A stretch of 56,470 nt of DNA from Verrucomicrobiota bacterium. GTDB taxonomy: Bacteria; Verrucomicrobiota; Verrucomicrobiia; Opitutales; Coraliomargaritaceae. Positions within the stretch are counted from its first letter, which is position 1. Every line of letters starts with the position of its first letter. Made by a program: the position numbers and the translations under genes. Shown here in pieces: positions 14,705 through 40,215 of this stretch. A model generated the notes under the pieces. The model was given only the letters and a program-made list of their open reading frames with translations, searched no databases and had not been told where the DNA came from. The stretch spans positions 1 through 56,470 of the forward strand of contig JBCDIN010000001.1 of assembly GCA_038748895.1 (NCBI GenBank). Reading direction: 5' to 3'.

Positions 14705-14709
14705 CTACC

Positions 14710-19353: not shown

Positions 19354-20379
19354 ATGACTTTGGCGATCACACTAGCTGAGAGGGGCATCATGCCTGACAG
19401 CGCTATTCGAAAGGGCATCAGAAAGCTTTTGCGTGAGCGACTAACGGACCTTTCTCGAGAAAAGAAAACAACCGCGCAATGGGTGGCCGAACTTGAGGAC
19501 CGTCCACTAGCCGAAGCAACGGAGGCAGCCAACGAGCAGCACTACGAGATCCCGGCGGCCTATTTCAAAACTGTGCTCGGTGAACACTTAAAATACAGCA
19601 GCGGCATTTGGCCCGATGGGTGCGAGTCACTTGAGGCGTCGGAAGCGGCGATGCTCGAGCTGAGTTGCGAAAGAGCGGAACTCGCAGACGGCCAGAAGAT
19701 CCTCGAGCTCGGCTGCGGCTGGGGGTCACTGAGTCTTTGGATGGCTGAGCACTATCCTGAAAGCCAGATCACCTCGATCAGTAACTCCAATTCGCAGCGG
19801 GAATACATTGAAAGCCAATGCGTGCATCGCGGCCTGACTAATCTCAAAGTCATTACCTGCGATATCAACAGTTTTGACCCATCAAATACCTTCGACCGTA
19901 TTGTTTCCGTCGAAATGTTCGAACATGTGCGGAACCACCGCCAGTTATTGCGCAAGATCGACTCATGGCTGGCACCTGGCGGAAAATTATTCGTCCACAT
20001 CTTTGCCCACCGTGAAGAGGCTTATCTTTTCGACGTGAAGAGTTCTAAAGACTGGATGTCGAAATACTTTTTTACCGGAGGAATCATGCCTTCAGCCGAT
20101 CTTCTGCCGACGGCTGCTGAACTACTGAACGAAGAAATGCGCTGGGAAGTAGATGGCACTCATTACAGCAAGACACTTGAGGCCTGGCTCGCGAAGCAAG
20201 ATGCCAATAAGGACGAGGTCATGAAAGAATTTAAAAAATGCTACGGTAGAGACAAAGCAAAGCTCTGGTTTCAGCGTTGGCGGATTTTCTACATGGCCTG
20301 CTCCGAGTTATTTGGATTTAAGGGCGGGAGTGAATGGCTCGTGATGCATTACCGCTTTGCCAAACCCGTGCAGGTCTAA
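19354..20379 (+). CDS. SAM-dependent methyltransferase, cyclopropane-fatty-acyl-phospholipid/mycolic acid synthase (CMAS) family
   Basis: ANEQHYEIPAAYFKTVLGEHLKYSSGIW and the SAM motif ILELGCGWGSLSLWMAEHYP are typical of the CMAS family. 341 aa. Confidence 0.85.
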   Translation: MTLAITLAERGIMPDSAIRKGIRKLLRERLTDLSREKKTTAQWVAELEDRPLAEATEAANEQHYEIPAAYFKTVLGEHLKYSSGIWPDGCESLEASEAAMLELSCERAELADGQKILELGCGWGSLSLWMAEHYPESQITSISNSNSQREYIESQCVHRGLTNLKVITCDINSFDPSNTFDRIVSVEMFEHVRNHRQLLRKIDSWLAPGGKLFVHIFAHREEAYLFDVKSSKDWMSKYFFTGGIMPSADLLPTAAELLNEEMRWEVDGTHYSKTLEAWLAKQDANKDEVMKEFKKCYGRDKAKLWFQRWRIFYMACSELFGFKGGSEWLVMHYRFAKPVQV

Positions 20380-20380
20380 C

Positions 20381-21658
20381 ATGTCGGCTTCCGCAGTACC
20401 ACTGAAAATCGCAGTTGTCGGCTGCGGGGTGGCCGGGCTCACCTCAGCCTGGCTTCTAAGTCGTCAGCACGACGTGCACCTCTTCGAGAAAAACGATTAC
20501 ATTGGAGGCCACACGCGGACCCTGAAAATACCTCACGGGCCAGATGCCGGCTTAGCTGTGGATACCGGATTCATTGTCATGAATCACCGAAACTACCCGC
20601 ATTTCACTCAGGTGCTGGAGCAATTGGGCGTGGCTTTGGCCGACAGCTCCATGACCTTTAGTTTCTACGATCAGGAAACGAACTATGGTTATTCGGGAAA
20701 CAATTTGAGCAGCCTTTTCCCTTCCGCTTCTTATTTTTTCAAACCGCAGCACCTAAGTCTTCTCAAGGATCTGTGGCGCTTTGCTAAAGTCGGCTTCCAG
20801 GATTTGAATTCTGGTTACCTCGCTGATAAAACCCTTGGTGACTACCTCGATGAGCGAAGATTCGGGCAGGCCTTCAAAACGCACTATCTTTACCCGATGG
20901 GGGCAGCCATCTGGTCGTCTCCCATTGCTGAAATGGCTGGTTTCCCGGCAGAACCTTACCTTCACTTCCTGGAAAATCACGGCCTCCTTCGGCTGACAAA
21001 TCGTCCTCAGTGGCGCTACGTAAAAGGTGGCAGTCGCACCTATGTCGAAGCCATGTTGAAGGATTTCAAAAATCCGCCCCAAGTTAGGGCCGCCCCCAGG
21101 TCTATTCGACGAAAAGACAGCCATATTATTCTGGAAACCATTGGTGGTGAGATTCTTACCTTCGACCATATTGTGATCGGGGCTCATGCTGATGAAGCGC
21201 TCAAGCTGCTTGCTGATCCCAGTCCGGAGGAAAAGGCGAACCTTGGGCCGTGGCGCTACCAGCCAAATGAAGTCGTTCTCCATACCTCTGCAGCGCAGAT
21301 GCCGCCAAATCGCAAGCTGTGGTCCTCCTGGAACTTCGTCCGCGAGCCAGGACAGGCTAAGGAACGTCCCGTTTCTGTCAGCTACTACATGAACCGGCTT
21401 CAACGTTTGCAGACGGACCGCGATTACGTTGTAACCCTGAATGCCGGTAGCGGGATCCCAGAAGCGGATATCATCAACTGCACGACCCTGACTCACCCGC
21501 TTTATTCGTTTGAGACAATGGCCACCCAACCCAGACTGAAAGAAATGAACGGCAAACGGAACACATGGTTTTGCGGTAGCTACTTCGGTTATGGCTTTCA
21601 CGAAGATGCGGTGCGTTCTGCAGTCGAAGTCGCCTCCCAGTTTGGCATCAAGTTGTGA
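20381..21658 (+). CDS. NAD(P)/FAD-binding oxidoreductase (amine-oxidase-like, COG2907-type)
   Basis: Dinucleotide-binding motif KIAVVGCGVAGLTSAWLLSRQHDVHLFEKNDYIGGHTRT. The ATG at 20381 lies 2 nt after the upstream stop; the ORF-track start at 20357 would overlap. Confidence 0.85.
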   Translation: MSASAVPLKIAVVGCGVAGLTSAWLLSRQHDVHLFEKNDYIGGHTRTLKIPHGPDAGLAVDTGFIVMNHRNYPHFTQVLEQLGVALADSSMTFSFYDQETNYGYSGNNLSSLFPSASYFFKPQHLSLLKDLWRFAKVGFQDLNSGYLADKTLGDYLDERRFGQAFKTHYLYPMGAAIWSSPIAEMAGFPAEPYLHFLENHGLLRLTNRPQWRYVKGGSRTYVEAMLKDFKNPPQVRAAPRSIRRKDSHIILETIGGEILTFDHIVIGAHADEALKLLADPSPEEKANLGPWRYQPNEVVLHTSAAQMPPNRKLWSSWNFVREPGQAKERPVSVSYYMNRLQRLQTDRDYVVTLNAGSGIPEADIINCTTLTHPLYSFETMATQPRLKEMNGKRNTWFCGSYFGYGFHEDAVRSAVEVASQFGIKL

Positions 21659-22461
21659 TCGAACACTCCAAAATCTTTCGTGGCACGGTCGTGCACGAGC
21701 GGCTGGTCCCAACCGGGCATGCCTTTAGCTATCCGGTCACTTTCTTCGGTTTTGATTTAAGCGAGCTACCTGAGATTGCCCGGAATAACTTCACATTTGG
21801 CTACAACGAGACGCGCCCTGTCAACCTCCGCGATAAAGACTATCTTCACGGCAAAGAAGTCCCTGTGGTTGAGCAACTTGAGGATTTCATCGGCCCGGAA
21901 GCAGATGGACAACACACCTTGCTGATCTCGTCACCACGGTATCTCGGCCGGGCCTTCAACCCTGTAAATTTTCACCTCCGCATGGAAGGTGAAATCCTCG
22001 TTGCGGCAGTGGCTGAGGTGAATAACACCTTTGGCGACCGACATGTCTACACTCTGACCGAACTCATACCAGCAGGGCCACAGACCTGGACTGCGCGAAA
22101 ACCCAAAGACTTCCATGTCTCTCCTTTCAATAACATGGCCGGGGAGTATCATTTTACCTTCCGTATAGAAAATAATGCTATTTTTCTAGGAGTCGATCTT
22201 CACCGGGACGGAAAATACGTATTAAAGACGTGGATACGGGGGAAAACACAGCCACTGACCCAGCTCAATCTGATCCGTTATTTTTTTCTGCATCCATTCG
22301 ATACAGCCCTTAACAGCATGCCACGCATCATTTGGCAGGCCGCTATCCTCTATTACAAAAAAAAGCTGCAAACCTACAAGCGGCCCAGCCCTCACTCGCC
22401 TGATACTCTGATCGATCGCGACCAACCTGAGAGAGAACCGGCACGATTCAGGCAAGGATAA
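21655..22461 (+). CDS. DUF1365-family protein
   Basis: IFRGTVVHERLVPTGHAFSYPVTFFGFDLSEL...SSPRYLGRAFNPVNFHL...VAEVNNTFGDRHVYTL matches the DUF1365 pattern. The GTG start overlaps the upstream TGA (GTGA). Confidence 0.85.
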   Translation: MIEHSKIFRGTVVHERLVPTGHAFSYPVTFFGFDLSELPEIARNNFTFGYNETRPVNLRDKDYLHGKEVPVVEQLEDFIGPEADGQHTLLISSPRYLGRAFNPVNFHLRMEGEILVAAVAEVNNTFGDRHVYTLTELIPAGPQTWTARKPKDFHVSPFNNMAGEYHFTFRIENNAIFLGVDLHRDGKYVLKTWIRGKTQPLTQLNLIRYFFLHPFDTALNSMPRIIWQAAILYYKKKLQTYKRPSPHSPDTLIDRDQPEREPARFRQG

Positions 22462-22512: not shown

Positions 22513-23106
22513 ATGCCCGAAAAGAAGCAGCCCAAAGTGGAAATTGCTCCTCCGGAGACTTGGGTAGATCGCTATGGTGATTACTTGTATGGCTACGCTA
22601 TGTCCCGATTGCGCAACCCGGAGGCCGCTCAAGACTGCGTGCAGGATACATTACTCGCCGGGATTAAAGCTTTTGAGCGCTTTGACGGCAGTCGCGATAT
22701 CAAATTCTGGCTGCGCGGCATCATGAGAAATAAAATCGTTGACCAGATTCGCAAATCGGTCCGCGAAAAAAAGGTCGATATTGACTCAGAGGACGAGACA
22801 CTTCTTGAGAGTTTTTGGTTCAAATACAGCGGTATCGCCACGACTAATCCCGACCCCTGGGAATTCAATCCACGTAAATTCTACGATAATGGGGAATTTT
22901 GGAAAGTTTTTGAAACCTGCATCGACGAAATTAAAGACCCGGCGCGAGAGGCCTTTATTCTGCGGGTTCTAGAAGATCTCACTACTGAGGAAGTTTGTAA
23001 GGCAATGGATATAACTCCGAATTATCTTTGGGTGCTCTTGCATCGAGCGAGAGAACAGCTTAAGATACTCCTCGAGTCCAGATGGACCGGAAAAGATGCC
23101 ACCTAA
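22513..23106 (+). CDS. ECF-type RNA polymerase sigma-70 family factor
   Basis: Region 2 reads YLYGYAMSRLRNPEAAQDCVQDTLLAGIKAF...FWLRGIMRNKIVDQIR. The region 4 HTH reads LTTEEVCKAMDITPNYLWVLLHRAREQLK. The sigma2-sigma4 linker is extended. Confidence 0.9.
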   Translation: MPEKKQPKVEIAPPETWVDRYGDYLYGYAMSRLRNPEAAQDCVQDTLLAGIKAFERFDGSRDIKFWLRGIMRNKIVDQIRKSVREKKVDIDSEDETLLESFWFKYSGIATTNPDPWEFNPRKFYDNGEFWKVFETCIDEIKDPAREAFILRVLEDLTTEEVCKAMDITPNYLWVLLHRAREQLKILLESRWTGKDAT

Positions 23107-23121
23107 ACTTTCGAAGTATTC

Positions 23122-23421
23122 ATGTTTACCTGCAAACAAGTCTCAAATGCACTGTCCGAGGAGGATTTTGAGAAAATGTCGCCGCTAAGGCGATTTTTTC
23201 TTCAGCTCCATGTGAAACTCTGCGTGTTCTGCGGCAGGTTTAATCGCCAAGTCATCGATTCTCAGGAGATGTGTAGCTGCTACAAAAAACATGAGCAGTC
23301 ATCTGAGGCTGACCGTCCAAAGCTTGATGAAAACAAGAAGGATGAGCTAAAAGAACTTCTCGCTCAGCATTCCAACAAAACATTGGTCGAGAAGAAAGAC
23401 CATGTAGAGGCTCAAGGCTGA
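23122..23421 (+). CDS. Small zinc-binding (ZAS, zf-HC2) anti-sigma factor, apparently soluble
   Basis: 99 aa, starting 15 nt after the sigma gene. It has the C4-x25-H30-x3-C34-x2-C37 arrangement (MFTCKQ...LQLHVKLCVFC) plus extra C51/C53. No TM helix and no cupin domain follow. Confidence 0.75.
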   Translation: MFTCKQVSNALSEEDFEKMSPLRRFFLQLHVKLCVFCGRFNRQVIDSQEMCSCYKKHEQSSEADRPKLDENKKDELKELLAQHSNKTLVEKKDHVEAQG

Positions 23422-25037: not shown

Positions 25038-25436
25038 ATGAACAAAAATACCATTGCCTGGATCTCGCAGATCCTAGTCGCCATCATCATGGGCCAAACG
25101 CTCTTCTTTAAATTCACAGACGCCCCTGAAACTGTCGAGCTATTCAAGCTGTTGGGCCAGGGGGCTTTTGCCTACAAGACGATTGGTATTTTGGAATTGA
25201 TCGCATGTATCTTACTCGTTGTTAGGCCAACTATCGTCTATGGGGCAATCTTATCCATCGGACTAATGTCAGGTGCGATTCTGGCTCACCTAACGACGAT
25301 CGGATTCAGCGGGCCAAATGGTTCGCTCGGGCTTCTCGCCGTTCTGGCATGGGCTTTAAGCGCTGTTGTTCTTGTTATCCGCCGCAGTGAGATCCCATTC
25401 ATTGGGATTCGTTTATCCCGCGACGGTCAAAACTAA
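25038..25436 (+). CDS. DoxX-family membrane protein
   Basis: 132 aa with four hydrophobic helices. The size and pattern are typical of DoxX-like proteins (ILVAIIMGQTLFFKF...GILELIACILLV). Confidence 0.65.
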   Translation: MNKNTIAWISQILVAIIMGQTLFFKFTDAPETVELFKLLGQGAFAYKTIGILELIACILLVVRPTIVYGAILSIGLMSGAILAHLTTIGFSGPNGSLGLLAVLAWALSAVVLVIRRSEIPFIGIRLSRDGQN

Positions 25437-25543: not shown

Positions 25544-26062
25544 ATGAGTTCCAGCAATCTGATAAGCGTTCTTAAAGAAACACTCCTGCAAGAATACGAC
25601 CTACTCACCCACCTAAGTGATGAGCAATACGCCGCACCAGGCCAAGGCTACTACAAAAGCAGCGTGGGCATGCATATCCGACACAATCTGGATCACTTCG
25701 GTGCCTTTTTCGATGGCCTGGAGGATGGCCGAATCGACTACGAAAGCCGCGAGCGCAATACCCTGATCGAAGAGTCCACACAGACAGCTCAAGGCTTGAT
25801 CGAAACCTATATTGAAGCACTGGAAAATTTTTCGATGGAAGCCAGCTGCGCGCTTTCTATCCGCGAGGAAGATGGCGCACCGCTCGAGAAAGCGTCTTGG
25901 ATCGAAAGCTCTTGCGGTCGCGAACTACAGTTTTTGCTCGGACATTCGGTGCATCATCACGCCATCATAGCGATGATGATTGTGCAAAATGGGTTCACGC
26001 TACCGACAGGATTTGGCGTTGCTCCCTCGACCAAGCGTTACCAGAGCAGGGTAAGTCACTAA
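25544..26062 (+). CDS. DinB-family (DinB_2-like) metal-dependent protein
   Basis: 172 aa with a His triad context HIRHNLDHFGAFF ... LLGHSVHHHAI, typical of DinB four-helix-bundle proteins. Confidence 0.65.
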   Translation: MSSSNLISVLKETLLQEYDLLTHLSDEQYAAPGQGYYKSSVGMHIRHNLDHFGAFFDGLEDGRIDYESRERNTLIEESTQTAQGLIETYIEALENFSMEASCALSIREEDGAPLEKASWIESSCGRELQFLLGHSVHHHAIIAMMIVQNGFTLPTGFGVAPSTKRYQSRVSH

Positions 26063-26076
26063 AAAAGGATCGGTAG

Positions 26077-26808
26077 ATGTGCACGTTGAGTTGGTGGATC
26101 GGTCAGGAGAACCGTGGCGTTTTCTTTAATCGGGATGAGAAAATCACTCGATCGAGAGGACTCCCTCCAAGACTCATAGAATCTGAATTCTGCGATATCC
26201 TGATGCCAGTTGATCCTGATGCGGGCGGCACTTGGATTGGCGTGAACCAAATGGGCGTAGTTATCGCCCTGCTGAATAACTACCCGCATTATCAGGCTAC
26301 ATCGCCTGATCAACGCAGCCGAGGACGACTCGTAGTCGATCTCTTAAAACAATCGGAGAACGCAGCGGACTGCATGCAGCGCCTTTCCAGTCAAAACTTG
26401 GGGCGTTACCGCGGCTTTCTGCTCTTCGCGATGGACTTGGAAAGCAAACCGCAAGCGACTGAATGGGCAGGCGAATTCCTTCGGCCCATTCCCTTGCTTG
26501 GAAGCACCGGACTTCATCTGCTGACCACTTCCTCTGTCCGATCTGAAGCATGTCTTGAATATCGGCGTAAGCTTTTCTGCCGCGAATCGCGAACACCAGA
26601 ATACCTTCGCTCGAAGCATCAACATTTCGAACGCGCAGACCCGGCGCTGGGTCCACTTATGATCCGCGACGACGCGGCAACTGATTCGATCACCGAAGTG
26701 CGCCTGGAGGATGCTAACTTTACAATGAGTTTTCAGTCTATCTCGGACAATCCGCTAGAATTGGCTCCACCTGTTATCAAAAAGATCACGATGGCCGTTG
26801 CCAAATGA
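26077..26808 (+). CDS. NRDE-family protein (TANGO2-like, N-terminal Cys)
   Basis: It starts MCTLSWW and contains the literal family signature FFNRDEKITRSR, followed by DPDAGGTWIGVNQMGVVIALLNN and QRSRGRLVVDLL. Its TGA overlaps the ATG of the next gene (ATGA at 26805-26808). Confidence 0.8.
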   Translation: MCTLSWWIGQENRGVFFNRDEKITRSRGLPPRLIESEFCDILMPVDPDAGGTWIGVNQMGVVIALLNNYPHYQATSPDQRSRGRLVVDLLKQSENAADCMQRLSSQNLGRYRGFLLFAMDLESKPQATEWAGEFLRPIPLLGSTGLHLLTTSSVRSEACLEYRRKLFCRESRTPEYLRSKHQHFERADPALGPLMIRDDAATDSITEVRLEDANFTMSFQSISDNPLELAPPVIKKITMAVAK

Positions 26809-29399
26809 GTTGGCGCAAAATTCTCGCCATCTTAGCAATCGCCTGGATCGGCCTCAATCTGCTCTCAACAGGCTATCGAGGTATGCGCGGCTTTGAACGC
26901 GAGCCTCTAGCCGATCAGGAAATCGCCATGATCCCGACCGACCAGTCCGATGATGGTAAACCCGTTGCCCTTGCCTATCGTCACTACCGGAAAGATAACG
27001 AAGCAGGCATCCCGATTCTTCTACTTCACGGTAATCCCATGGCGGGCCGTGCGATGAAGCCTCTCGCAGAACGACTAAAAAAAGAGCGTGAAGTCCTCAT
27101 CCCGGATCTGCCCGGCCTCGGATTTACAAGTCGTAACCTAAAGGTTTACTCCGCCGAGAATCAGATCTCTGTTCTGATCTCTTGGCTCGAAAAATTAAAC
27201 ATCGAAAAAGTTCATGTCACCGGCTACTCGCAGGGCGGACCGGTCGCACTCGAGTTAGTCGATCGCCGACCGGATCTTGTTGAGAGTGTCGCTCTGTTTG
27301 CAGCGGTCGGCCTGCAGGAGCACGAACTGCTCGGCAGCTATGAGCTCAACCAACCACTCTACTCGCTCTATTATGCCGCTCTCTGGAGCTTGCGCTGGCT
27401 GACGCCGCATTTTGGACTATTGGATGATCCGATTCTTTCGCCAACGACAGCAAGGAATTTTGCTGAGACCGACCTCCGACGTAACGAGCCGATCTTGAAG
27501 AACTTTGAGGCTCCTACCCTGATTTTACATTCTACCACGGATCGCTTTGTGCCCTACTCAGCCGCAAAAGCTCATGCCGAGTTGGCACCGCATTCCATTT
27601 TCGAGGAAGTCCCCGGAGGTCACATGGGTATCTTTTCCGATCCAGAGAGCTTCGCCCGGCGACTTCTAGAATTTATTACACTCGTAGAATCCGGCAAATC
27701 TCCGACGCGAGCAAATGCGGTATCCTTCAATTCGAGCCATCAACCAGGCCTCTCTGTCAAAATCCCCCAAGACACAGAATTTCTGAAGATCCTTATCCTC
27801 AGTATTTTTCTCTTCCTTCTTGTCTACGCTTCTGAGGATTTGGCCTGTATCGGCGGAGGGATTCTTGCTGCGAGCGGTGCGATGCCCTTAACGAGCGCAA
27901 TTCTCGCCTGTCTCGCAGGCATCTGGGTAAGCGATGTCTTGATCTACACTGTTGGACATCTTCTCGGAGCGCGCACTCTGGAAACTAGATTTTTTCGCCA
28001 TATCAGCGAGAAAGACGTCTCTCGTTTCCGATCTGCTTACAGCAAGCGGGGCCTCAAGATCGTTTTTATCACACGCTTCATTCCTGGCAGCCGCGTCATT
28101 GCCTATCTCACGGCTGGGATCCTCCGGCTGGGATATTTGCGGTTTAGCTTGTGGCTGTTTCTGGCGGCAAGCCTTTGGACGCCCATTCTGGTCACGACCG
28201 CCTTCGTCGTCGGCCATCCGTTAATCGACTGGTGGAAGAGCTATGGACTGAAGCTGCTTCCTGTAATCGCATTTTGTATCATCGCACTTTATCTTAGTAT
28301 AGGAATCATTTCAAAGTCATTCACTTATAAGGGTAGAGCTGAACTCCGCGGCCAATGGTTACGTCTCATCCGATGGGAGTATTGGCCTTCATTTCTGATC
28401 TACCTTCCAGTCGTCGTTTACGCAATTTGGCTCATGGTGAAATACCGCAGTGTAACCGTCTGGGCACTTTGCAATCCGGGCATGCAACCACTGAGCGGAC
28501 TCGCGATGGAATCAAAGAGCGAGATCCTAAACGCATTAAACAAAAGCACAGGCAAGATACCGGCATGGAAATTTTTACCTCAAGGTGGACCTCCGGAAGC
28601 GAGAATAGACGCTTTCAAAGAATTCCAAAAAGAGCGCCCCAATCCCTGGCCTGTCATTCTCAAGCCGGATATTGGCCAACGTGGCGAAGGAGTTGCCGTA
28701 ATCCGAACGGAAGCCGAAGCCAAGCGCTACCTGCGCGCCAATTCCGAACCTCTAATCATTCAAGCATATGTCGAGGGCCTGGAATTTGGAGTCTTTTACT
28801 ACAAAATTCCCGGCCACAGGAAAGGCCGGATCTTTTCGATCACCCATAAAATCTTGCCGCAGTTAGAAGGCGATGGCGTGCGAACGCTGGAACAACTTAT
28901 CCTTGAAGACACACGAGCCGTTGCAAAGGCCAGGCACTATCTCAAGGTCAACGCAGACCGGATTAAAGAAATTCCTGCAAAAGGAGAAACCATCCAACTG
29001 GTCGAACTCGGCACACATTGTCGTGGCGCGATATTCTTAGACGGGAACCAGTTTGCAACCGAAGCACTGGCCGAAGCACTGGATGAACTTGTTCAGACTT
29101 ACGACGGTTTTTACTTCGGTCGATTTGATCTGCGTGTGACAGATCCTGCAGCGCTTTCGAGAGGAGAGGCATTCAAGATCCTCGAACTCAATGGCGTCTC
29201 TTCAGAGTCGACGGATATCTACGACCCTAAAAACAATATCCTTGTCGCTTGGAAAAAGCTCTGCCGCCAATGGTCAATCGCTTTTGAAATCGGAGCCGCA
29301 AACCGGAAAGCAGGAATTCCCACACCGCGCTTAAAAGAAGTTTTCGCCACCCTGCGTTCACACCGCCAAAGGACTTTCTTTGAAGTTGCGGATTTATAG
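26805..29399 (+). CDS. Three-domain membrane fusion: alpha/beta hydrolase + DedA/VTT membrane domain + ATP-grasp ligase
   Basis: 864-aa ORF with an N-terminal TM helix. The hydrolase part (aa ~55-300) has PILLLHGNPMAG, the nucleophile elbow HVTGYSQGG, then HSTTDRFVP and GGHMGIF. The polytopic region (aa ~330-580) has the DedA-like FITRFIPGSRVIAYLTAGILRL. The ATP-grasp part (aa ~600-864) has WPVILKPDIGQRGEGVAVI, LIIQAYVEGLEFGVFYY and FKILELNGVSSESTDIYD. Confidence 0.8.
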   Translation: MSWRKILAILAIAWIGLNLLSTGYRGMRGFEREPLADQEIAMIPTDQSDDGKPVALAYRHYRKDNEAGIPILLLHGNPMAGRAMKPLAERLKKEREVLIPDLPGLGFTSRNLKVYSAENQISVLISWLEKLNIEKVHVTGYSQGGPVALELVDRRPDLVESVALFAAVGLQEHELLGSYELNQPLYSLYYAALWSLRWLTPHFGLLDDPILSPTTARNFAETDLRRNEPILKNFEAPTLILHSTTDRFVPYSAAKAHAELAPHSIFEEVPGGHMGIFSDPESFARRLLEFITLVESGKSPTRANAVSFNSSHQPGLSVKIPQDTEFLKILILSIFLFLLVYASEDLACIGGGILAASGAMPLTSAILACLAGIWVSDVLIYTVGHLLGARTLETRFFRHISEKDVSRFRSAYSKRGLKIVFITRFIPGSRVIAYLTAGILRLGYLRFSLWLFLAASLWTPILVTTAFVVGHPLIDWWKSYGLKLLPVIAFCIIALYLSIGIISKSFTYKGRAELRGQWLRLIRWEYWPSFLIYLPVVVYAIWLMVKYRSVTVWALCNPGMQPLSGLAMESKSEILNALNKSTGKIPAWKFLPQGGPPEARIDAFKEFQKERPNPWPVILKPDIGQRGEGVAVIRTEAEAKRYLRANSEPLIIQAYVEGLEFGVFYYKIPGHRKGRIFSITHKILPQLEGDGVRTLEQLILEDTRAVAKARHYLKVNADRIKEIPAKGETIQLVELGTHCRGAIFLDGNQFATEALAEALDELVQTYDGFYFGRFDLRVTDPAALSRGEAFKILELNGVSSESTDIYDPKNNILVAWKKLCRQWSIAFEIGAANRKAGIPTPRLKEVFATLRSHRQRTFFEVADL

Positions 29400-29657: not shown

Positions 29658-30686
29658 ATGATGCAAAAAGTAATTATCGATAGCGACTGGGGAGGCGACG
29701 TCCTTCAACTCTCCAGTCTATTGTTCGCAAGACCTCAAGAATACCGCGTCCTTGGAGCAACTGTGACTTTCGGTAATTCGAGCCATGATCAGAATCTTCT
29801 CAATGCTGGGTCGATGCTCAAGCTGATGGATATGGACCACTGCATACCTCGCTTTCCCGGAGCCCGCGCTCCCGATGGAATGAAAGAACAACCAGAGGGC
29901 GATGGAGCACACGGTCTCACTGGTTTAGGCAAGATTGAGCCAGATCTGTCGAATACTGAACCTGAAGGCACCGATTCAGTTGATTTCATATTAGAGACAG
30001 TAGCACATGAACCAACAGATTCGGTTATTATCATAGCTACAGGCCCGCAAACAAACATCGCCAAAGCTATTCGCAAGGATCCGTCGATTATGCAACGCAC
30101 CAAGCAGATTCGCATAATGGCAGGCTGCACTGCTCCTCTCGACGGCTACCGGGTCGATAGGAATTTGAACCGGCTCTCAGATCAGCCAGTCCAACGCTTT
30201 GGAAATATAACTGAGCATGCAGAGTTTAATTTTCAACAGGCTCCAAGAGATGCTGAGACTGTATTGAAAAGTGGGATACAAATCTATCTTTTCCCCATGA
30301 ATTGCACACATCAAATGACCTTGACCCAAGCGCGTGAAGCAAAACTTGCAAAAGCCTTCAAGGATGCCGGAGCAGTTAGGGATATGATTATCGGGTTACA
30401 CTCATCCGCGAGGTTCATCGATTACCAAAAATTCGGCATCGCACCGACCCTGCACGATGTCCATACGACCGCTTCGCTAGTAGAACCTGAGCTTTACGCA
30501 GGCCGCTGGGGAGATATTGATATCGTCACGGATCCAAACGCACCAGATACAGGATATACGGGTTTTAAACCAAACCCGAATGGTTCACACTGGGTTGCTG
30601 ATACAATAAGGGATCCAGACGCCGTTTTTGATCTACTGATCAATGCCTTGAAGCGGACGATTCGTTACGAGTCGCTCACGGTTTAA
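29658..30686 (+). CDS. Nucleoside hydrolase (IUNH) family protein with divergent N-terminal Asp motif
   Basis: Family patterns present: GATVTFGNS, IIATGPQTNIAKAI, IRIMAG, GNITEHAEFNFQQAPRDAETV. The N-terminal IIDSDWGGDV replaces the canonical DTDPGxDD. Confidence 0.75.
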   Translation: MMQKVIIDSDWGGDVLQLSSLLFARPQEYRVLGATVTFGNSSHDQNLLNAGSMLKLMDMDHCIPRFPGARAPDGMKEQPEGDGAHGLTGLGKIEPDLSNTEPEGTDSVDFILETVAHEPTDSVIIIATGPQTNIAKAIRKDPSIMQRTKQIRIMAGCTAPLDGYRVDRNLNRLSDQPVQRFGNITEHAEFNFQQAPRDAETVLKSGIQIYLFPMNCTHQMTLTQAREAKLAKAFKDAGAVRDMIIGLHSSARFIDYQKFGIAPTLHDVHTTASLVEPELYAGRWGDIDIVTDPNAPDTGYTGFKPNPNGSHWVADTIRDPDAVFDLLINALKRTIRYESLTV

Positions 30687-31918
30687 ACCGCACGCTCAAG
30701 AACAACGTGCTGCACATCAATTAGCGACGTATCAAATCCGGCTTCACAGTAGCTTAGATAGTAATTCCATTTTCGCCGGAATTTGCTGTCGAAACCGAGT
30801 GCATCAACCTTCCTAGAATTTCGGTTAAATTGCTTGGCCCAGCGGTTTAGCGTTTCTGCATAATCCGCTCCGAAACCTTCCATCGAAATAAGATGAAGAC
30901 CCTCGGCAGCTTCAACATGACGCTTGATCGCACCGGGCGACGGTAGGTGACCACCTGGGAAAATGTGCTTTTGGATCCAGTCGCAGCTACTGCAATATTG
31001 CTCATAGCGATCGTCTGGAATCGTAATTGCCTGCACAACTGCTCTGGCGCCCGGTTGGAGTGAATCCCGAATTTTAGAAAAGTAACTCTCCAGATACTCT
31101 TTGCCAACAGCCTCGATCATTTCACATGAAACAACAGCGTCGAAACGACCGTCGAGTTCCCGATAGTCCTGTAGCGCAATCTCGATATTCTTACCATGTG
31201 GCGACTCGTCAAAACACTGCTTCGCGTAGTCGAATTGTTCTTCCGAGAGTGTGATTGTCTTTACTGAGCAGCCGCGCTCGGCCGCCCGCAGAGCCAGAGC
31301 TCCCCAACCAGAACCGATTTCAAGAATTCTGTCTCCCGGTTTGACTCCCGAAAGATCAAGCATGCGATCGATTTTGTTGAGCTGTGCCTGTTCAAGACTC
31401 TCATAGTAATTCGAGAAAAGAGCGCTCGAGTAAGTCATCGTTGAATCAAGGAAAGTCTGATAAAACTCATTACTGAGATCATAATGCTCCTGTATATTCT
31501 CTTTGCTTTTACTTAATGTGTTTCGACGTCCCAAGTGGTAAAGACGATTCAGAGCCCGGCCCAAATAGGAAAAACCACGCTTTGATTGACCCAGGTATTT
31601 CTGATTTTGAGCAAAGATTTTCAACACTCCGGTCAGATTCGGCGTCGACCATAGTTGGTCTACATAGGCCTCGCCTAAACCAATACTCCCACCTGAAAAA
31701 ACACGTCTGAAGAAAGCTGTATCGGTAATTTGCATCCGCTCGGGTGCTAAGTCTGCGTCACCTACATTAACAGAAGCCCCACTTGGGAAACTGACCTGCA
31801 ATCGACCTTCCTTGATTCTAGACAAAAGCCGGGCGAAGGCTGCCTCACGAAGCCCTAGCCGCTTCGATTTAGATGCGGGTAGAGCAGGATCTAGGACTGT
31901 GGTCGGTGTGGTATCCAT
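30683..31918 (-). CDS. cfa: Cyclopropane-fatty-acyl-phospholipid synthase family methyltransferase
   Basis: 411 aa, with HYDLSNEFYQTFLDSTMTYSSALF and the SAM motif ILEIGSGWGALALRAAERGCSVKTITLSEEQ. It is the last gene of an overlapping three-gene minus-strand unit. Confidence 0.9.
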   Translation of the reverse strand: MDTTPTTVLDPALPASKSKRLGLREAAFARLLSRIKEGRLQVSFPSGASVNVGDADLAPERMQITDTAFFRRVFSGGSIGLGEAYVDQLWSTPNLTGVLKIFAQNQKYLGQSKRGFSYLGRALNRLYHLGRRNTLSKSKENIQEHYDLSNEFYQTFLDSTMTYSSALFSNYYESLEQAQLNKIDRMLDLSGVKPGDRILEIGSGWGALALRAAERGCSVKTITLSEEQFDYAKQCFDESPHGKNIEIALQDYRELDGRFDAVVSCEMIEAVGKEYLESYFSKIRDSLQPGARAVVQAITIPDDRYEQYCSSCDWIQKHIFPGGHLPSPGAIKRHVEAAEGLHLISMEGFGADYAETLNRWAKQFNRNSRKVDALGFDSKFRRKWNYYLSYCEAGFDTSLIDVQHVVLERAV

Positions 31919-32676
31919 GGAAAGAAAGCGCTAGTTGTTTGCTGGTAGTTCCGGTAAGCCTCACCCCGGCTCTTGAGCGAAGAGCGTTCGGCATGCGGGA
32001 TTCCGGTAAGATAACGAAGAAAAACATACATCGCTGCAGGGCCAATCAGCGTAAGTGCCCAGTTTGGTGCACCCCACGCAAAAGCAACATAGGCCCACCA
32101 ATGCAGCCATTCGAAAAAGTAATTCGGATGACGGGAGTAGCGCCAGAGGCCGTCCCGGCAGACACCACCTTTATTTGCCGGGTCTGCACGGAAGTTGGCC
32201 AACTGCCGGTCAGCTAGCGCTTCGCCAAGCAGTGCGGCAAGTGCGATGAAGATAGCGAAAACATCTGCAAAACGGCCACCACCCACTGTGTTACTGGCGG
32301 CAATAGTCACAGGAAATATAAAGACTGCGATGAATACGATTTGAGCGAGAAACAAAAAATAGAAATTGCGTTTTGAGCGGGCTCCCCAGTGCTGAGCAAG
32401 ATTAGAGTAGCGTGGGTCCTCGTGCCCGCGAAGCACACGGTCACGCAAAAGATGATAAGTCAGACGGAACGACCATAAACAAACAATGATGACGACAAAA
32501 TCTGTTCGTGCATGCGCTTGTTCCTGAACGAAATAGTAAGCAATCGCGCTGATACCGATACCACCCGTCCAAATAAGATCAACAATAGCCATTAGCTTTA
32601 CTCTTAGCGCTATAAGGTAAATTAAACTGGCTAAGACAAAGCCCACTAGGAACAAGCCTATCCAAAAACTACTCAT
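31891..32676 (-). CDS. DUF1295-family membrane protein (steroid 5-alpha-reductase/ICMT-like fold)
   Basis: A polytopic 261-aa ORF with GLWRYSRHPNYFFEWLHWW, the DUF1295 signature. Its start overlaps the desaturase stop and its 3' end overlaps the cfa start. Confidence 0.85.
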   Translation of the reverse strand: MSSFWIGLFLVGFVLASLIYLIALRVKLMAIVDLIWTGGIGISAIAYYFVQEQAHARTDFVVIIVCLWSFRLTYHLLRDRVLRGHEDPRYSNLAQHWGARSKRNFYFLFLAQIVFIAVFIFPVTIAASNTVGGGRFADVFAIFIALAALLGEALADRQLANFRADPANKGGVCRDGLWRYSRHPNYFFEWLHWWAYVAFAWGAPNWALTLIGPAAMYVFLRYLTGIPHAERSSLKSRGEAYRNYQQTTSAFFPWIPHRPQS

Positions 32677-33629
32677 TGATTAGCTTTTGAATTTTGCGAA
32701 GCCATCGCTTCAGCGTAAATTTTCTCTGGATATACTTTCATATCCCAGACAAGTCCGAGCTTTTCCATCAAACGCAGGCCCAGGAAGGTCATGTCTATCT
32801 CCCACCAATACATGCCCTGTCTTGCAGAAAGTGGCCAGCGGTGATGATTATTGTGCCAACCCTCTCCAAAGGTCAGTAACGCGACCCAGAAATTGTTCCG
32901 ACTTTCATCTTTGGTATTAAAACGCTTATTGCCGATGATGTGCGTCACTGAATTCACGCAAAAAGTTACGTGGTAAACCAGGACCGTGCTTAGAAAGAAG
33001 CCCCACATAACAAGCTGTAAGCCACTCGTTCCCAAGCCGGGAAAAGCAGCATTCAAACCAGCACCTATCCCATACAGGACGACAATTAATGAAAGCACCG
33101 GTAGGACATGGAAACGGTCGATGAAACAAAGCTCACGATATTTAGACAAGTCTTTTACTCGATTGAATTGGATGGTCTTGTAGGAACGACAAAGGACCCA
33201 TCCTATGTGCGCCCAGAAAGCGTCTCTAACTACCGGCGAATGAATATCTTCTTCCTGATCTGAATGCTGGTGGTGATGACGATGGTTCGCCGCCCACCAC
33301 ATCGGGCCAAGTTGCGCTGAAGACGTCCCAACCCACGCAAAGACAAACTGCATAAGCCGGCTTGTTTTAAAGGAACGATGCGAAAAGTAACGGTGGAACC
33401 CTGCAGTTAGCGCAAACACACGTGCGACGTAAGTAATGATCAGGGCCACAACAGCAACCCAGCTAAAACCAGTGAAGAAGGCACCAATACATGCCAGATG
33501 CATGAAAAATATGGGGGAAGATGCCATCAACAGGCGGTTGTCTTCGTCTTTAAATCCGTGGTGAATAATCTTCGCTAAAGTCGTCATGAGAGTCGGATTG
33601 TTTAACTGTAGAGAGAACGTGGTGAACAA
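32673..33629 (-). CDS. Membrane fatty-acid (acyl-CoA/acyl-lipid) desaturase
   Basis: Three His boxes: HRYFSHRSF, HRHHHQHSD and GEGWHNNHHRWP. The start is possibly at the internal MTTLAKII. Confidence 0.9.
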   Translation of the reverse strand: MFTTFSLQLNNPTLMTTLAKIIHHGFKDEDNRLLMASSPIFFMHLACIGAFFTGFSWVAVVALIITYVARVFALTAGFHRYFSHRSFKTSRLMQFVFAWVGTSSAQLGPMWWAANHRHHHQHSDQEEDIHSPVVRDAFWAHIGWVLCRSYKTIQFNRVKDLSKYRELCFIDRFHVLPVLSLIVVLYGIGAGLNAAFPGLGTSGLQLVMWGFFLSTVLVYHVTFCVNSVTHIIGNKRFNTKDESRNNFWVALLTFGEGWHNNHHRWPLSARQGMYWWEIDMTFLGLRLMEKLGLVWDMKVYPEKIYAEAMASQNSKANQ

Positions 33630-38383: not shown

Positions 38384-39727
38384 CTAATCTCCCGGGGTGA
38401 TCGGATGTGGACTTGCAGGCACAGTTAAACTGCCCGCAGTCTTTAAACGAACCAACTTCGCCTCCAAAGTTGCGACCATCTTTTCGCCGAGCACGTGCTC
38501 GACTGCATCGGCATCACGGTCGACCCGGCTCGTTGCAACATCGGCGTATTCAATTAGATACATCTCCCACAAGCGATGATTACGCGTTACCCGCGCAGCA
38601 GCCGCCAATCCAGCCGCAGTCAAAAGAACTGGCCCACCGGCACGGTAAGCTTCGACCAGCCCTTCCTCATAGGCTAAACGAAGTGTTCGTTTGAGCTGCT
38701 GGTCCGACCATGTCCGGCGTCCCCGCACCTGTCGGAATTCTACTGGCCGAATCTCGATTTCGAATCCATCAACCTCAAGAATCTCGTAGAGTGCGCGGAG
38801 GAGGTGCTGCCGTCCCATTCTACGCTTTAGAGCGTGCTGCCGCAAAGCACGCACCAGGACACCTCGCTCTCTTCCGAAAAACATACTTACCAAAAACCCT
38901 AAAGCCGCCACCAGAACAATTAGTGCACCAGCCGGCATTCTCGGAAAGAAAGCACTTACACTCGCTCCTACCCAACCACTCAAACCACCAATCAGTGCCG
39001 ACAGTATGAGCATTCGATCGAGCTGATTCGTCCAGAAGCGCGCTGCCGCCGCAGGTGTAATCAAAAAAGCGATGATAAGAATTAAGCCCACTGCCTGCAA
39101 ACCAGCTACTGTCACCGCAGTGACCAAGCCCAGCAAAAGAATATCCAACCCACGAACCGGCCAGCCCTGCGCTGCAGCATACTCCTCATCAAAACACAGC
39201 AGACGAAACTCTTTGAAAAACAAGCCAGAGAGGATCAGGACTCCCAGTGTGACGCCCGACAAGAGCTTAAAATCACTCAGGACCATTGAGGCCGTCTTCC
39301 CATAAATAAACGATTCCAGGCCAGCTGCGCTCCCTTCCGGCATCGTCTGGACAAATCCCAGGATCGCAACCCCCGCACCAAAGAAAACGCTAAGGATAAT
39401 GCCCATCGCGGCGTCATCTTTAATCCGCGAATAACTCCGGATCAGAAGAACCAACACACAGCCGAAAACTCCTGTAATCGTGGCCCCCAGCATCAAGACC
39501 GGCAGCGATTTCCCATCACCACCCAGCCAAACAGAAATCATAAATGCGATCCCCACACCGGGCAGCGTCGCATGTGAGAGCGTATCTCCCATCAACGAAC
39601 GCTTTCTCAACAGAAGAAATCCTCCCATTAAGCCACAGGAGCAGCCCAACAGGACCGTACAGATCACAACCAGACGCGTGTTATAATCGCGTAAGAAAAG
39701 AATGTTGATCACATCTGAGACTTCCAT
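38384..39727 (-). CDS. Metal ABC transporter permease fused to a C-terminal DtxR-family repressor domain (TroC-TroR/YtgC-YtgR-like)
   Basis: The N-terminal ~290 aa is an ABC-3 permease (MGDTLSHATLPGVGIAF). The C-terminal ~150 aa reads LLRALYEILE...LLTAAGLAAAARVTRNHRLWEMYLIEYADVATSRVDRDADAVEHVLGEKMVATLE, the DtxR/MntR HTH plus dimerisation pattern. The ATG at 39727 overlaps the GNAT stop by 1 nt. Confidence 0.85.
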   Translation of the reverse strand: MEVSDVINILFLRDYNTRLVVICTVLLGCSCGLMGGFLLLRKRSLMGDTLSHATLPGVGIAFMISVWLGGDGKSLPVLMLGATITGVFGCVLVLLIRSYSRIKDDAAMGIILSVFFGAGVAILGFVQTMPEGSAAGLESFIYGKTASMVLSDFKLLSGVTLGVLILSGLFFKEFRLLCFDEEYAAAQGWPVRGLDILLLGLVTAVTVAGLQAVGLILIIAFLITPAAAARFWTNQLDRMLILSALIGGLSGWVGASVSAFFPRMPAGALIVLVAALGFLVSMFFGRERGVLVRALRQHALKRRMGRQHLLRALYEILEVDGFEIEIRPVEFRQVRGRRTWSDQQLKRTLRLAYEEGLVEAYRAGGPVLLTAAGLAAAARVTRNHRLWEMYLIEYADVATSRVDRDADAVEHVLGEKMVATLEAKLVRLKTAGSLTVPASPHPITPGD

Positions 39728-40215
39728 CAACCCGCCTTCAGTTGCTTCTCGTAGAACATCGCCCGCCCCATCACTGGGTCGAGTTCATAGCCGACAAAGC
39801 CAAATCTCCTGTAAATTTTCTGGGCTCTTTTGTTTCCTTCCAGGACCTCCAGCGTCAGCTTACAACAGCCCAAGTCATTAGCCATGCCTTCAACTTTTGA
39901 AAGCATGGCCCGGGCTAGGCCTTGTCCTCGAAATTCAGGAACAACAACAAAGTCATGAAGATTCAGGATAGGTTTACAGGCAAATGTAGAAAAGCCTTCG
40001 AAACAGATGGCTAGGCCGGCTGGGGCTTCGCCGACAAAAGCAAGGACAACGTAGCAGTTTTTGCGCTTCCGCAGTTCGGCAAAGAGATTGCCTTTCGTGT
40101 AATCGCTTAGTCCGGAACCACCGCCCATTACATCCTTTGCATACGCGTTCAGAAGCCGGACGATCGTGTCCGCATATTCTGAAGAAGATAGGTCCGCTAA
40201 AATGATCTTATGCAT
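39727..40215 (-). CDS. GNAT-family N-acetyltransferase
   Basis: VVLAFVGEAPAGLAICFE...HDFVVVPEFRGQGLARAMLSKVEGMA...LEVLEGNKRAQKIYRRFGF is the acetyl-CoA-binding R/Q-x-x-G-x-G/A motif context. The start is the ATG at 40215, or at 40251, which would overlap the ATPase. Confidence 0.85.
   Translation of the reverse strand: MHKIILADLSSSEYADTIVRLLNAYAKDVMGGGSGLSDYTKGNLFAELRKRKNCYVVLAFVGEAPAGLAICFEGFSTFACKPILNLHDFVVVPEFRGQGLARAMLSKVEGMANDLGCCKLTLEVLEGNKRAQKIYRRFGFVGYELDPVMGRAMFYEKQLKAG

Follow-up and report, generated by a model that had tools for sequence, protein, structure and literature searches.

A hydrolase, DedA/VTT and ATP-grasp fusion from Verrucomicrobiota: a candidate aminolipid head-group system linked to NRDE/TANGO2 and DinB genes

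Modification of lipid head groups is coupled to their translocation in the MprF and AcvB/PA0919 systems, in which a cytoplasmic head-group domain is fused to a translocating domain and the lipid concerned is also the target of a periplasmic alpha/beta-type hydrolase (PMC8131360, PMC11980842, PMC13197417). Here we describe a locus that shares this logic but relies on different machinery: an 864-amino-acid (aa) fusion of an alpha/beta hydrolase, a DedA/VTT core and an ATP-grasp ligase, together with the NRDE/TANGO2-family gene that precedes it, in a stretch of 56,470 nucleotides (nt) from a Verrucomicrobiota bacterium (Coraliomargaritaceae, Opitutales; assembly GCA_038748895.1, contig JBCDIN010000001.1, positions 1 to 56,470, forward strand), referred to below as the window. 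MprF with AcvB is the closest system in function, and none of its parts is homologous to those found here. Searches with Pfam and NCBIfam found no MprF synthase or flippase domain in the 864-aa protein, and the energy would come from ATP by way of an acyl-phosphate rather than from aminoacyl-tRNA. The membrane part is of the DedA/VTT type, the hydrolase lies in the same polypeptide, and the genes that accompany the fusion here or in its relatives encode OlsB/OlsA-, DinB- and NRDE-family proteins. We propose, in a judgment that we consider evenly balanced and that was reached from sequence, that the DoxX-DinB-NRDE-fusion run of the window is a copy of a widespread gene cluster forming an aminolipid head-group ligase, flippase and hydrolase system.

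Although bacterial aminolipids of dipeptide or amidated type (such as flavolipin, ornithine-serine-glycine lipid and cerilipin) have been known for decades, the extra step in their synthesis has had no genes assigned to it. The serine-glycine lipid flavolipin, described in Bacteroides, derives from glycine lipid, the pathway that adds the serine being given as "unknown" (PMC10191378); for the ATP-dependent transfer of taurine to the carboxylate of ornithine lipid, which bears on the taurine-ornithine lipid cerilipin described in Gluconobacter, the gene is not known (PMC12971839). ATP-grasp chemistry would fit both the taurine amidation and the hypothetical addition of serine to glycine lipid. 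The cluster is tied to the OlsBA, OlsF and OlsHI pathways by physical linkage to OlsB/OlsA- or OlsF-family genes in most genomes; it differs from them in that the linked acyltransferases fall below equivalog cutoffs, that the clade of the window lacks such genes nearby, and that none of the known aminolipid enzymes, including the OlsC/D/E hydroxylases and the OlsG methylase, is an ATP-grasp, DedA, DinB or NRDE protein. A March 2026 review of aminolipids mentions neither ATP-grasp nor DedA proteins.

DedA proteins have been tied to the recycling of carrier lipids, and a 2023 survey of DedA fusions reported only those with rhodanese, PAP2 and disulfide-oxidoreductase domains (PMC10127716). Taken singly, the parts of the present system belong to established superfamilies (ATP-grasp, DedA, alpha/beta hydrolase, NRDE and DinB), but neither their combination nor a single member of the family is described in the literature as searched. 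No account was found of DedA with ATP-grasp and hydrolase, of ornithine lipid with ATP-grasp or of aminolipid with DedA, in a search that did not cover the amidoligases of Iyer et al. 2009; an earlier note on this DNA, which knew of no characterised system of this architecture, thus agrees with the published record as searched.

The fusion and its conserved gene cluster

The NRDE/TANGO2-family gene (26077..26808, + strand, 243 aa, Pfam TANGO2) and the gene for the fusion (26805..29399, + strand, 864 aa, assigned by Pfam, a family profile and structure models) share the tetranucleotide ATGA at 26805..26808 (+), which holds the stop codon of the former and, in its ATG, the start codon of the latter. 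The earlier note had read this overlap correctly, as it had the open reading frame (ORF) that begins MCT and carries the NRDE signature (present as VFFNRDE) and the other motifs that it quoted (HVTGYSQGG, FITRFIPGSRVIAYLTAGILRL, VILKPDIGQRGEGVAVI and ILELNGVSSES), all of which are present. Its four-part architecture of anchor, hydrolase, DedA/VTT domain and ATP-grasp domain was recovered by Pfam, the family profile and the structure models. It had allowed that the junctions might be artefacts of assembly or frameshift; the fusion proved to be genuine, with homologues in complete genomes and a model that is confident through both junctions. Full-length homologues of 32 to 85% identity are on record, among them those in the complete genomes of Coraliomargarita akajimensis DSM 45221 (fusion ADE54946.1, with NRDE as ADE54945.1 and DinB and DoxX genes adjacent) and other Coraliomargarita spp., under no other names than "alpha/beta fold hydrolase" or "DedA/pimeloyl-ACP esterase". 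The AlphaFold model of the whole protein has a mean predicted local distance difference test score (pLDDT) of 90.6, and none of its segments falls below 50. When one genome per GTDB species was scanned by pattern, relatives were detected in at least 579 species, belonging to Verrucomicrobiota, Acidobacteriota, Gemmatimonadota, Planctomycetota, Bacteroidota/Rhodothermia/Balneolaceae, Desulfobacteraceae, KSB1, Calditrichota and other groups.

Gene neighbourhoods were sampled in the best 80 of these at least 579 loci by clustering crudely called ORFs lying within 6 kb of the fusion, and neighbours were counted in the 69 loci that had at least 2.5 kb of upstream sequence. A GNAT of family PF13444 (OlsB-like) was a neighbour in 51 of the 69 and a PF01553 acyltransferase (OlsA-like) in 44, OlsB/OlsA-type genes being present in 53. 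The DinB subfamily of the window accompanied the fusion in 49 loci, NRDE in 33 and across phyla, a protein combining a ferric-reductase transmembrane domain with a Rieske domain in 18, and DoxX in 15, where it either preceded DinB or came directly after the fusion. At least one of OlsB, OlsA, DinB and NRDE was found in 66 of the 69, a degree of linkage for which a rough estimate of chance gives well under one locus. The counts come from tblastn and BLAST clustering, an iterative hidden Markov model (HMM) search for NRDE having been dropped when its third round was contaminated by over-extended ORFs that overlap the fusion. The commonest order on one strand is OlsB-OlsA-DinB-[NRDE]-fusion-[DoxX], with frequent 4-bp overlaps; many related loci repeat the one that joins NRDE to the fusion. 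Among the NCBIfam models, those that fitted the acyltransferases best were OlsB (L-ornithine N-alpha-acyltransferase, E 7e-38) and OlsA (lyso-ornithine-lipid O-acyltransferase, E 1e-44), and in three loci (L021, L055 and L068) a bifunctional synthase of the OlsF family follows the fusion in place of OlsB/OlsA. Linkage of NRDE to the fusion in other genomes, on which the earlier note had made its pairing depend, therefore holds across phyla and often extends to translational coupling. Passed over as background in that note, the DinB gene accompanies the fusion more regularly than NRDE does (in 49 loci as compared with 33).

Shortened and split versions of the protein help to define what is constant in it. 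An exhaustive HMMER search with residues 516-864 returned 2,629 representative clusters at 50% identity, 1,097 of them at E <= 1e-30, and these fall into proteins of about 800 to 900 aa with hydrolase, VTT and ATP-grasp domains, of about 510 to 600 aa with VTT and ATP-grasp, of about 350 to 430 aa with the ATP-grasp domain and its hydrophobic membrane hook alone, and of about 710 aa with hydrolase and ATP-grasp and no VTT domain (P0243). Five loci illustrate how the neighbours behave. The stand-alone ATP-grasp genes of L083 (DinB-ATPgrasp-OlsB-OlsA) and L085 (DinB-NRDE-ATPgrasp-OlsB-OlsA-YHS, with an Asp/Arg-hydroxylase gene further on) are translationally coupled to OlsB-OlsA; a third stand-alone gene, in L084, has an NRDE fragment upstream; the VTT-ATPgrasp gene of L086 has its start overlapped by a DinB fragment; and the hydrolase-ATPgrasp gene of L087, which has no VTT domain, stands in the order DinB-NRDE-fusion-YHS. 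The HMMs of the DinB and NRDE subfamilies recognise the neighbours of these versions at E 1e-29 to 1e-85, and the NRDE fragment of L084 at 6e-13. On this comparison of sequences the constant module is the ATP-grasp domain with its own membrane hook, the hydrolase and the DedA core being dispensable in some relatives, and the core of the unit is DinB, often NRDE, and the membrane-hooked ATP-grasp, usually with OlsBA. Since the split versions keep their DinB, NRDE and OlsBA neighbours, the linkage of NRDE to the fusion is part of a larger unit. The hydroxylase gene of L085 (9973-10875), about 1 kb downstream of the DinB-NRDE-ATPgrasp-OlsB-OlsA run, belongs to the Asp/Arg beta-hydroxylase family, which we take to be that of the ornithine-lipid hydroxylase OlsC and of LpxO.

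Domains and membrane topology

The ATP-grasp domain occupies residues 547-864 (28443..29399, + strand; family profile, model and Foldseek). Pfam and NCBIfam searches with the single sequence gave only sub-threshold matches in this region (TTL, ATP-grasp_3 and cyanophycin synthetase). A profile built from 17 homologous C-termini and run against the sequences of the PDB matched CphA2 (7ta5, 1.4e-9), CphA1 (7wac and 7lg5, 4e-9), GshF (3ln6) and a RimK-domain protein, in a range of E 1e-9 to 1e-7. An AlphaFold model of residues 516-864 (pLDDT 93.3, predicted template modelling score 0.90) was aligned by Foldseek over about 250 to 280 of its 349 residues, to the G domain of CphA1, GshF and CphA2 and then to Ddl and VanA, with E 1e-9 and probability 1.00 for the CphA1 G domain, GshF and Ddl. 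Residues K620, Q653, E660, R773, D775, E794 and N796, which take in the ATP-binding lysine, the hinge residues and the Mg-binding Asp/Glu/Asn triad of the superfamily, show no variation among 58 aligned full-length homologues, the set to which the conservation figures below also refer, and align with the KP..G and E.N motifs of cyanophycin synthetases; profile, fold and alignment thus uphold the reading of the C-terminus as an ATP-grasp enzyme with intact catalytic residues.

Both by profile and by fold, the G domains of CphA1 and CphA2 and the ATP-grasp part of GshF are the best relatives, having the catalytic residues and a (K/E)R.P.V.GDG..T..ELI insertion in common with the fusion. Identity to them is about 15 to 17%, however, and the TM-score about 0.5 on the query. 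Only the G-domain-like region of CphA1 is matched, no Mur-ligase-like M domain being found in the fusion with Pfam or NCBIfam, and the GshA domain of GshF is absent from it. The usual N-terminal (pre-ATP-grasp) subdomain was not found in the models, where residues 508-570 make up two helices, one amphipathic and one hydrophobic, together with coil; in its place stand a lysine/arginine (K/R)-rich amphipathic helix and the hydrophobic 'RWEYWP...P535' helix, or hook (residues 508-546, 28326..28442, + strand; conservation and flank charges). Residues E525, W527 and P535 of the hook are invariant, both of its flanks are positively charged, and it is kept at the N-terminus of stand-alone ATP-grasp homologues.

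The N-terminal half of the fusion consists of a transmembrane anchor (residues 3-28, 26811..26888, + strand; AlphaFold helix 3-28, hydrophobic peak 6-24) and an alpha/beta-hydrolase domain (residues about 38-296, 26916..27692, + strand; Pfam and Foldseek). The hydrolase matches Abhydrolase_1 with 68.9 bits (cutoff 25.8) and Abhydrolase_6 with 58.4 bits (cutoff 26.3) over residues 70-285. Its triad is made up of S142 (nt 27228, in GYSQGG), D246 (nt 27540) and H273 (nt 27621), the aspartate being invariant and the other two at least 90% conserved, so that the complete serine hydrolase proposed from the elbow serine and the later D and H stands. Foldseek with the full-length model returned alpha/beta hydrolases only, namely esterases (E 4e-12), PhaZ, the membrane phospholipase A PlaF (6i8w) and ABHD6, and the C-terminal part was for this reason modelled separately. 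One full-length homologue (P0059, 820 aa, 21 member sequences) has a degenerate hydrolase, with GNGFGA in place of GYSQGG and no alpha/beta-hydrolase match in Pfam, and conserved VTT and ATP-grasp residues.

Between the two enzymes lies the DedA/VTT core (residues 322-505, 27768..28319, + strand; Pfam VTT_dom and the helix pattern of the model). VTT_dom (PF09335) matches residues 352-464 with E 2e-14 and 54.4 bits, above a cutoff of 33.9, and the UptA equivalog of NCBIfam (NF052604) matches the VTT region below its cutoff, at 42 bits against 250 (E 9e-11). The core follows the DedA layout of a re-entrant loop, a transmembrane helix, a cytoplasmic K/R-rich loop, a second re-entrant loop and two transmembrane helices, and the model folds its helices as an inverted repeat. 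The first repeat consists of a helix at 322-342, a tip at S343-E344-D345, a helix at 344-356 and a transmembrane helix at 362-387; the second, of a helix at 402-423, a tip from R424 to R430, a helix at 429-439 and a transmembrane helix at 444-469. Residues E344 and D345 in the first loop and R424, P427 and R430 in the second are invariant. Two re-entrant loops, with acidic E344/D345 in the first and basic R424/R430 in the second, are features of the DedA family (YqjA, UptA and TMEM41B/VMP1); YqjA has charged residues of its own (E39, D51, R130 and R136), and the loop charges of the fusion fit its topology, which by cysteine accessibility comprises three spanning helices, a periplasm-side hairpin, a cytoplasm-side hairpin and a C-terminus inside (bioRxiv 10.1101/2021.10.18.464800). 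The core of the fusion differs from those of the DedA family in being flanked by two enzyme domains.

The placement of these parts relative to the membrane was approached through charge and helix count. Across the homologues, net charge is +1.8 in the N-terminal tail (which has up to 10 K/R), -1.8 in re-entrant loop 1, +4.6 in the loop 388-423, +3.0 in re-entrant loop 2, +5.3 in the loop 503-526 and +2.1 after the helix 527-545. The VTT-ATPgrasp homologues have short acidic N-terminal tails right before re-entrant loop 1; P0243 has a K/R-rich tail, a transmembrane helix, the hydrolase, exactly one more transmembrane helix, a K/R-rich amphipathic helix, the hook and the ATP-grasp domain; and stand-alone members have a strongly basic tail before the hook and basic residues after it. 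Because an ATP-dependent domain must be cytoplasmic, these patterns point to an N-in anchor, a periplasmic hydrolase, the DedA core, a cytoplasmic amphipathic helix, a hook that would not span the membrane and would, by parity and charge, form part of the ATP-grasp module, and a cytoplasmic ATP-grasp domain. Counting all six hydrophobic helices as spanning gives N-in and C-in termini but places the K/R-rich DedA loops outside, and was rejected. An N-in orientation of the DedA core places the ATP-grasp domain outside and was set aside in favour of a YqjA-like core of three transmembrane helices and two hairpins, followed by a non-spanning hook.

The two proteins encoded upstream of the fusion also retain the residues of their families. 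The NRDE protein matches Pfam TANGO2 (PF05742) with E 1.9e-16 and 61.4 bits (cutoff 22.6), carries its NRDE motif at residues 18-21 (nt 26128-26139) and a cysteine (Cys2) at its N-terminus, and can be aligned to the human TANGO2 structures 9bwa and 8sv7; C2, N18, R19, D20 and E21 are invariant in the alignment of its subfamily. Human TANGO2 has been proposed to be a Cys N-terminal nucleophile (Ntn) hydrolase of fatty-acyl conjugates with Cys2 and NRD(E) as its catalytic centre (PMC13044924), and haem trafficking, acyl-CoA binding and Ntn hydrolysis are competing accounts of its function (PMC10470608, PMC13044924). While Cys2 and N-R-D-E are kept, the window-type NRDE proteins differ from human TANGO2 and Shewanella HtpA in their shorter length (about 240 aa), in having LT(T/S)SS at the position of Asn157, and in a context of lipid head-group enzymes where the others have cytochrome c or haem genes (PMC10470608). 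In three loci an NRDE gene lies downstream of the fusion (L016 10516-11286, L033 10507-11253 and L056 4128-4547); the protein of L033, the sole one aligned, has the canonical TANGO2 form, GLSNALL, in which the Asn is present, and the upstream subfamily has LT(T/S)SS at that position. The DinB-family protein (25544..26062, + strand, 172 aa; Pfam DinB, E 1e-6) probably binds metal. Near-invariant in its subfamily are R46, H47, D65, Y66, R69, R71, R126, E127, H134, H137, H138 and a GxAPST motif, so that an Arg cluster is kept besides His47, His134 and His138, a triad that we take to be typical of metal-binding DinB proteins. The run opens with a small membrane protein of the DoxX family (25038..25436, + strand; Pfam DoxX_2, E 7e-7), the gene order on this strand being DoxX-DinB-NRDE-fusion. 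A terminator scan found nothing convincing between these four genes and a promoter scan found fewer promoter-like sites than in shuffled sequence, both scans being uninformative for this phylum.

Proposed function and alternatives

The CphA1 G domain and GshF each take a peptide-like acceptor, activate its terminal carboxylate and extend it by an amino acid. Given that these nearest relatives extend a terminal carboxylate, and that the lipids made by OlsBA and OlsF carry a free alpha-carboxylate, the ATP-grasp domain may ligate an amine to the head group of an aminolipid. A membrane substrate is suggested by the hydrophobic hook that the ATP-grasp module always carries. The likely substrates would be ornithine-lipid- or glycine-lipid-type acyloxyacyl aminolipids, the products of OlsB/OlsA or OlsF-like enzymes. 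Held by its hook at the cytoplasmic face, the ATP-grasp domain would phosphorylate a free carboxylate of the head group (in the simplest case the alpha-carboxylate of its N-acylated amino acid) and join to it an amine such as a second amino acid or taurine, giving a dipeptide-type or amidated head group. The DedA/VTT core would then move the lipid between leaflets, and the periplasmic serine hydrolase would deacylate, trim or transfer the product. A precedent for such a hydrolase is OlsI, an alpha/beta hydrolase of aminolipid metabolism (PMC12493201), and the membrane phospholipase A PlaF is among the structural neighbours of the domain; for NRDE, the precedent is the Cys-Ntn activity proposed for TANGO2 (PMC13044924). 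DinB, as a metal-binding four-helix protein, and NRDE, as a Cys-Ntn-hydrolase-like protein, could serve as cytoplasmic accessory enzymes on the same substrate. Any specific product is named here with much less confidence than the system itself. The build, translocate and trim cycle suggested in the earlier note fits the predicted topology and the linkage to OlsB/OlsA or OlsF; what it had missed is the conserved aminolipid context.

Several observations weigh against this proposal. The substrate is argued from gene neighbourhood and by analogy with relatives of about 15 to 17% identity, and the OlsB-, OlsA- and OlsF-like neighbours fall below the NCBIfam equivalog cutoffs. In the 56-kb window tblastn found no OlsB/OlsA homologue, and the Opitutales/Coraliomargarita clade has none within 8 to 10 kb of the fusion: the relatives in this clade (L001-L003, L054 and L081), like the window, show only [YHS]-DoxX-DinB-NRDE-fusion. 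The aminolipid link of the clade is thus indirect, by way of other phyla and of a review that places OlsF or OlsH homologues in Puniceicoccales and Opitutales. The hook is 18 residues long and fully hydrophobic, its non-spanning placement being read from parity and charge and not from coordinates. In the NRDE protein, Thr151 of the conserved LT(T/S)SS corresponds to Asn157 of human TANGO2, the proposed oxyanion residue, and Asn is not conserved at this position in the subfamily; the alignment stops short of the position of Lys166, and a near-invariant Arg163 lies about 12 residues past Thr151. Finally, a cytoplasmic ligase and a periplasmic hydrolase could be a pair for synthesis and turnover, a transferase relay or something else.

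The same parts can be assembled into other systems. One would be a tRNA-independent analogue of MprF/AcvB, its ATP-grasp domain esterifying or amidating an amino acid onto phosphatidylglycerol, phosphatidylethanolamine or a similar lipid, its DedA core flipping the product and its hydrolase removing the modification and so setting its level. The same arrangement of cytoplasmic synthase, translocator and periplasmic alpha/beta hydrolase is that of MprF with AcvB (PMC8131360, PMC13197417), Ddl and the ester-forming ligase VanA are among the structural neighbours of the ATP-grasp domain, and no aminolipid synthase gene lies near the fusion in the clade of the window. We nonetheless think such an analogue improbable, given that OlsB/OlsA-type genes, and not phospholipid genes, are what 53 of the 69 loci carry, that the stand-alone ATP-grasp genes are translationally coupled to OlsB-OlsA, and that the closest ATP-grasp relatives make amides on terminal carboxylates. 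Also improbable, in our estimation, is a carrier-lipid relay of the Dlt or undecaprenyl-phosphate kind, with an aminolipid or other lipid loaded by the ATP-grasp domain and flipped by DedA, the hydrolase acting as a transferase to a periplasmic or outer-membrane acceptor, and the carrier being recycled. A ligase and a hydrolase on opposite faces of one polypeptide are easier to understand as a relay than as synthesis followed by destruction, the ties of DedA proteins to carrier-lipid recycling (PMC10127716) suit this reading, and alpha/beta hydrolases can be acyltransferases, OlsI being one that acts on lyso-ornithine lipid (PMC12493201). Against the relay, the neighbourhood conserves no acceptor-related genes, and the many members that lack the hydrolase, the DedA core or both show that neither is essential to the core chemistry.

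A different role for NRDE would make the system one of carboxylate amidation, NRDE serving as a glutaminase-like ammonia donor through its N-terminal Cys and the ATP-grasp domain forming a carboxamide that changes the charge of the head group, as in carbamoyl-phosphate synthetase or MurT/GatD. Class II amidotransferases use an N-terminal cysteine, and NRDE keeps its Met-Cys N-terminus and NRDE motif, its gene being coupled in translation to that of the ATP-grasp protein across many phyla; but TANGO2 proteins have no known glutaminase activity, the literature pointing to fatty-acyl conjugates and acyl-CoA, and a partner missing from about half of the loci is not an obligatory supplier, which makes amidation, to our minds, decidedly improbable. 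These three alternatives are less improbable for the clade of the window, where no olsBA genes adjoin the cluster. We see only a slight chance of a role with undecaprenyl phosphate or peptidoglycan precursors, in which the DedA domain would be UptA-like, the ligase Ddl-like and the hydrolase periplasmic. The weak UptA match of the VTT region and the presence of Ddl enzymes among the structural neighbours speak for it; both the UptA and Ddl matches lie far below family cutoffs, no cell-wall genes are conserved nearby, and the conserved neighbours are aminolipid acyltransferases. The chance that there is no functional unit at all, the fusion or its adjacency to NRDE being an artefact of assembly, frameshift or coincidence, is virtually nil in view of homologues in at least 579 species and in complete genomes, linkage across phyla and a confident model of the junctions, with nothing found in its favour.

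Returning to the proposed aminolipid ligase, flippase and hydrolase, a bolder version, which we hold as a doubtful possibility, is that this is the first ATP-grasp system to build peptide or amide head groups on lipids without tRNA and with its own flippase and hydrolase, and that NRDE/TANGO2 proteins were ancestrally Cys-nucleophile amidases or transacylases of N-acyl (amino-acid) lipids. Further out still is a sulfur or redox variant, in which the product would be a lipid-anchored thiol or a sulfur-containing head group; it is suggested by the DinB fold, which is typical of thiol S-transferases, by the DoxX, YHS and Rieske partners and by the GshF-like ligase. If the aminolipid proposal is right, head-group modification and translocation would be coupled here by machinery other than that of MprF, and the fusion would present a DedA domain with a strongly implied lipid substrate. 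A membrane-hooked ATP-grasp protein beside OlsB/OlsA in hundreds of species would be a direct candidate family for the long-missing enzymes of the extra step in flavolipin and its like, and its breadth could explain unassigned lipids in the lipidomes of soil and sea. Bacterial NRDE proteins coupled to lipid head-group enzymes would offer a tractable system in which to test an amidase or acyltransferase role for TANGO2; should the bolder version hold, a disputed human disease protein would gain a concrete, testable biochemical activity.

Other genes of the window and of related loci

The run is flanked in the window by genes of lipid tailoring. One flank encodes a methyltransferase resembling CMAS (19354-20379), a flavin amine oxidase (20357-21658) and a DUF1365 protein (21655-22461), followed by an ECF sigma factor (22513-23106) and a putative anti-sigma protein that is small and rich in Cys (23122-23421); on the other flank (30683-33629, minus strand) lie a second CMAS, a DUF1295 protein and a fatty-acid desaturase. 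These flanking genes presumably resemble stress-regulated clusters for cyclopropane or furan fatty acids. Genes for CMAS, DUF1295, desaturase and DUF1365 stand beside the fusion in only 1 to 3 of the 80 loci; they were accordingly rejected as parts of the system, and the locus of membrane-lipid modification in which the earlier note had set the NRDE-fusion pair is not kept around the fusion in other genomes.

Several other genes recur near the cluster in related loci. A secreted protein of about 150 aa that has a YHS domain and a signal-peptide-like N-terminus, and that is absent from the window, is found by the cluster in distant phyla (L081 7707-8192, L085 8819-9265, L087 8154-8600 and nine of L001-L080, for example L002, L028, L033, L044, L055, L068 and L076). 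The fusion of a ferric-reductase-like domain with a Rieske [2Fe-2S] domain (about 350 aa) is encoded just upstream of the OlsB-like gene, as in L008 (2936-4844) and L059 (2985-4822), and is followed by a protein of about 257 aa without a match in Pfam or NCBIfam; it may be a sign that the pathway also includes redox chemistry or a hydroxylation. Beside the fusion in eight loci is a protein of about 230 aa with a signal-peptide-like N-terminus, a HEIAH zinc-peptidase motif and a weak match to Peptidase_M48, encoded downstream in L012 (10485-11165), L023, L030, L043, L046 and L051 and upstream in L016 and L041.

Two further features of the window lie away from the cluster. At 38384-39730 (minus strand) an ABC-3 metal-transporter permease is fused to the C-terminal metal-binding and dimerisation domain of an iron-dependent repressor and adjoins a second ABC-3 permease and an ABC ATPase. 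The region 9146-16272 (+ strand) encodes an ORF of 1,852 aa and then a DUF1501 protein, a pairing of large ORF and DUF1501 that is common in bacteria of the PVC group.

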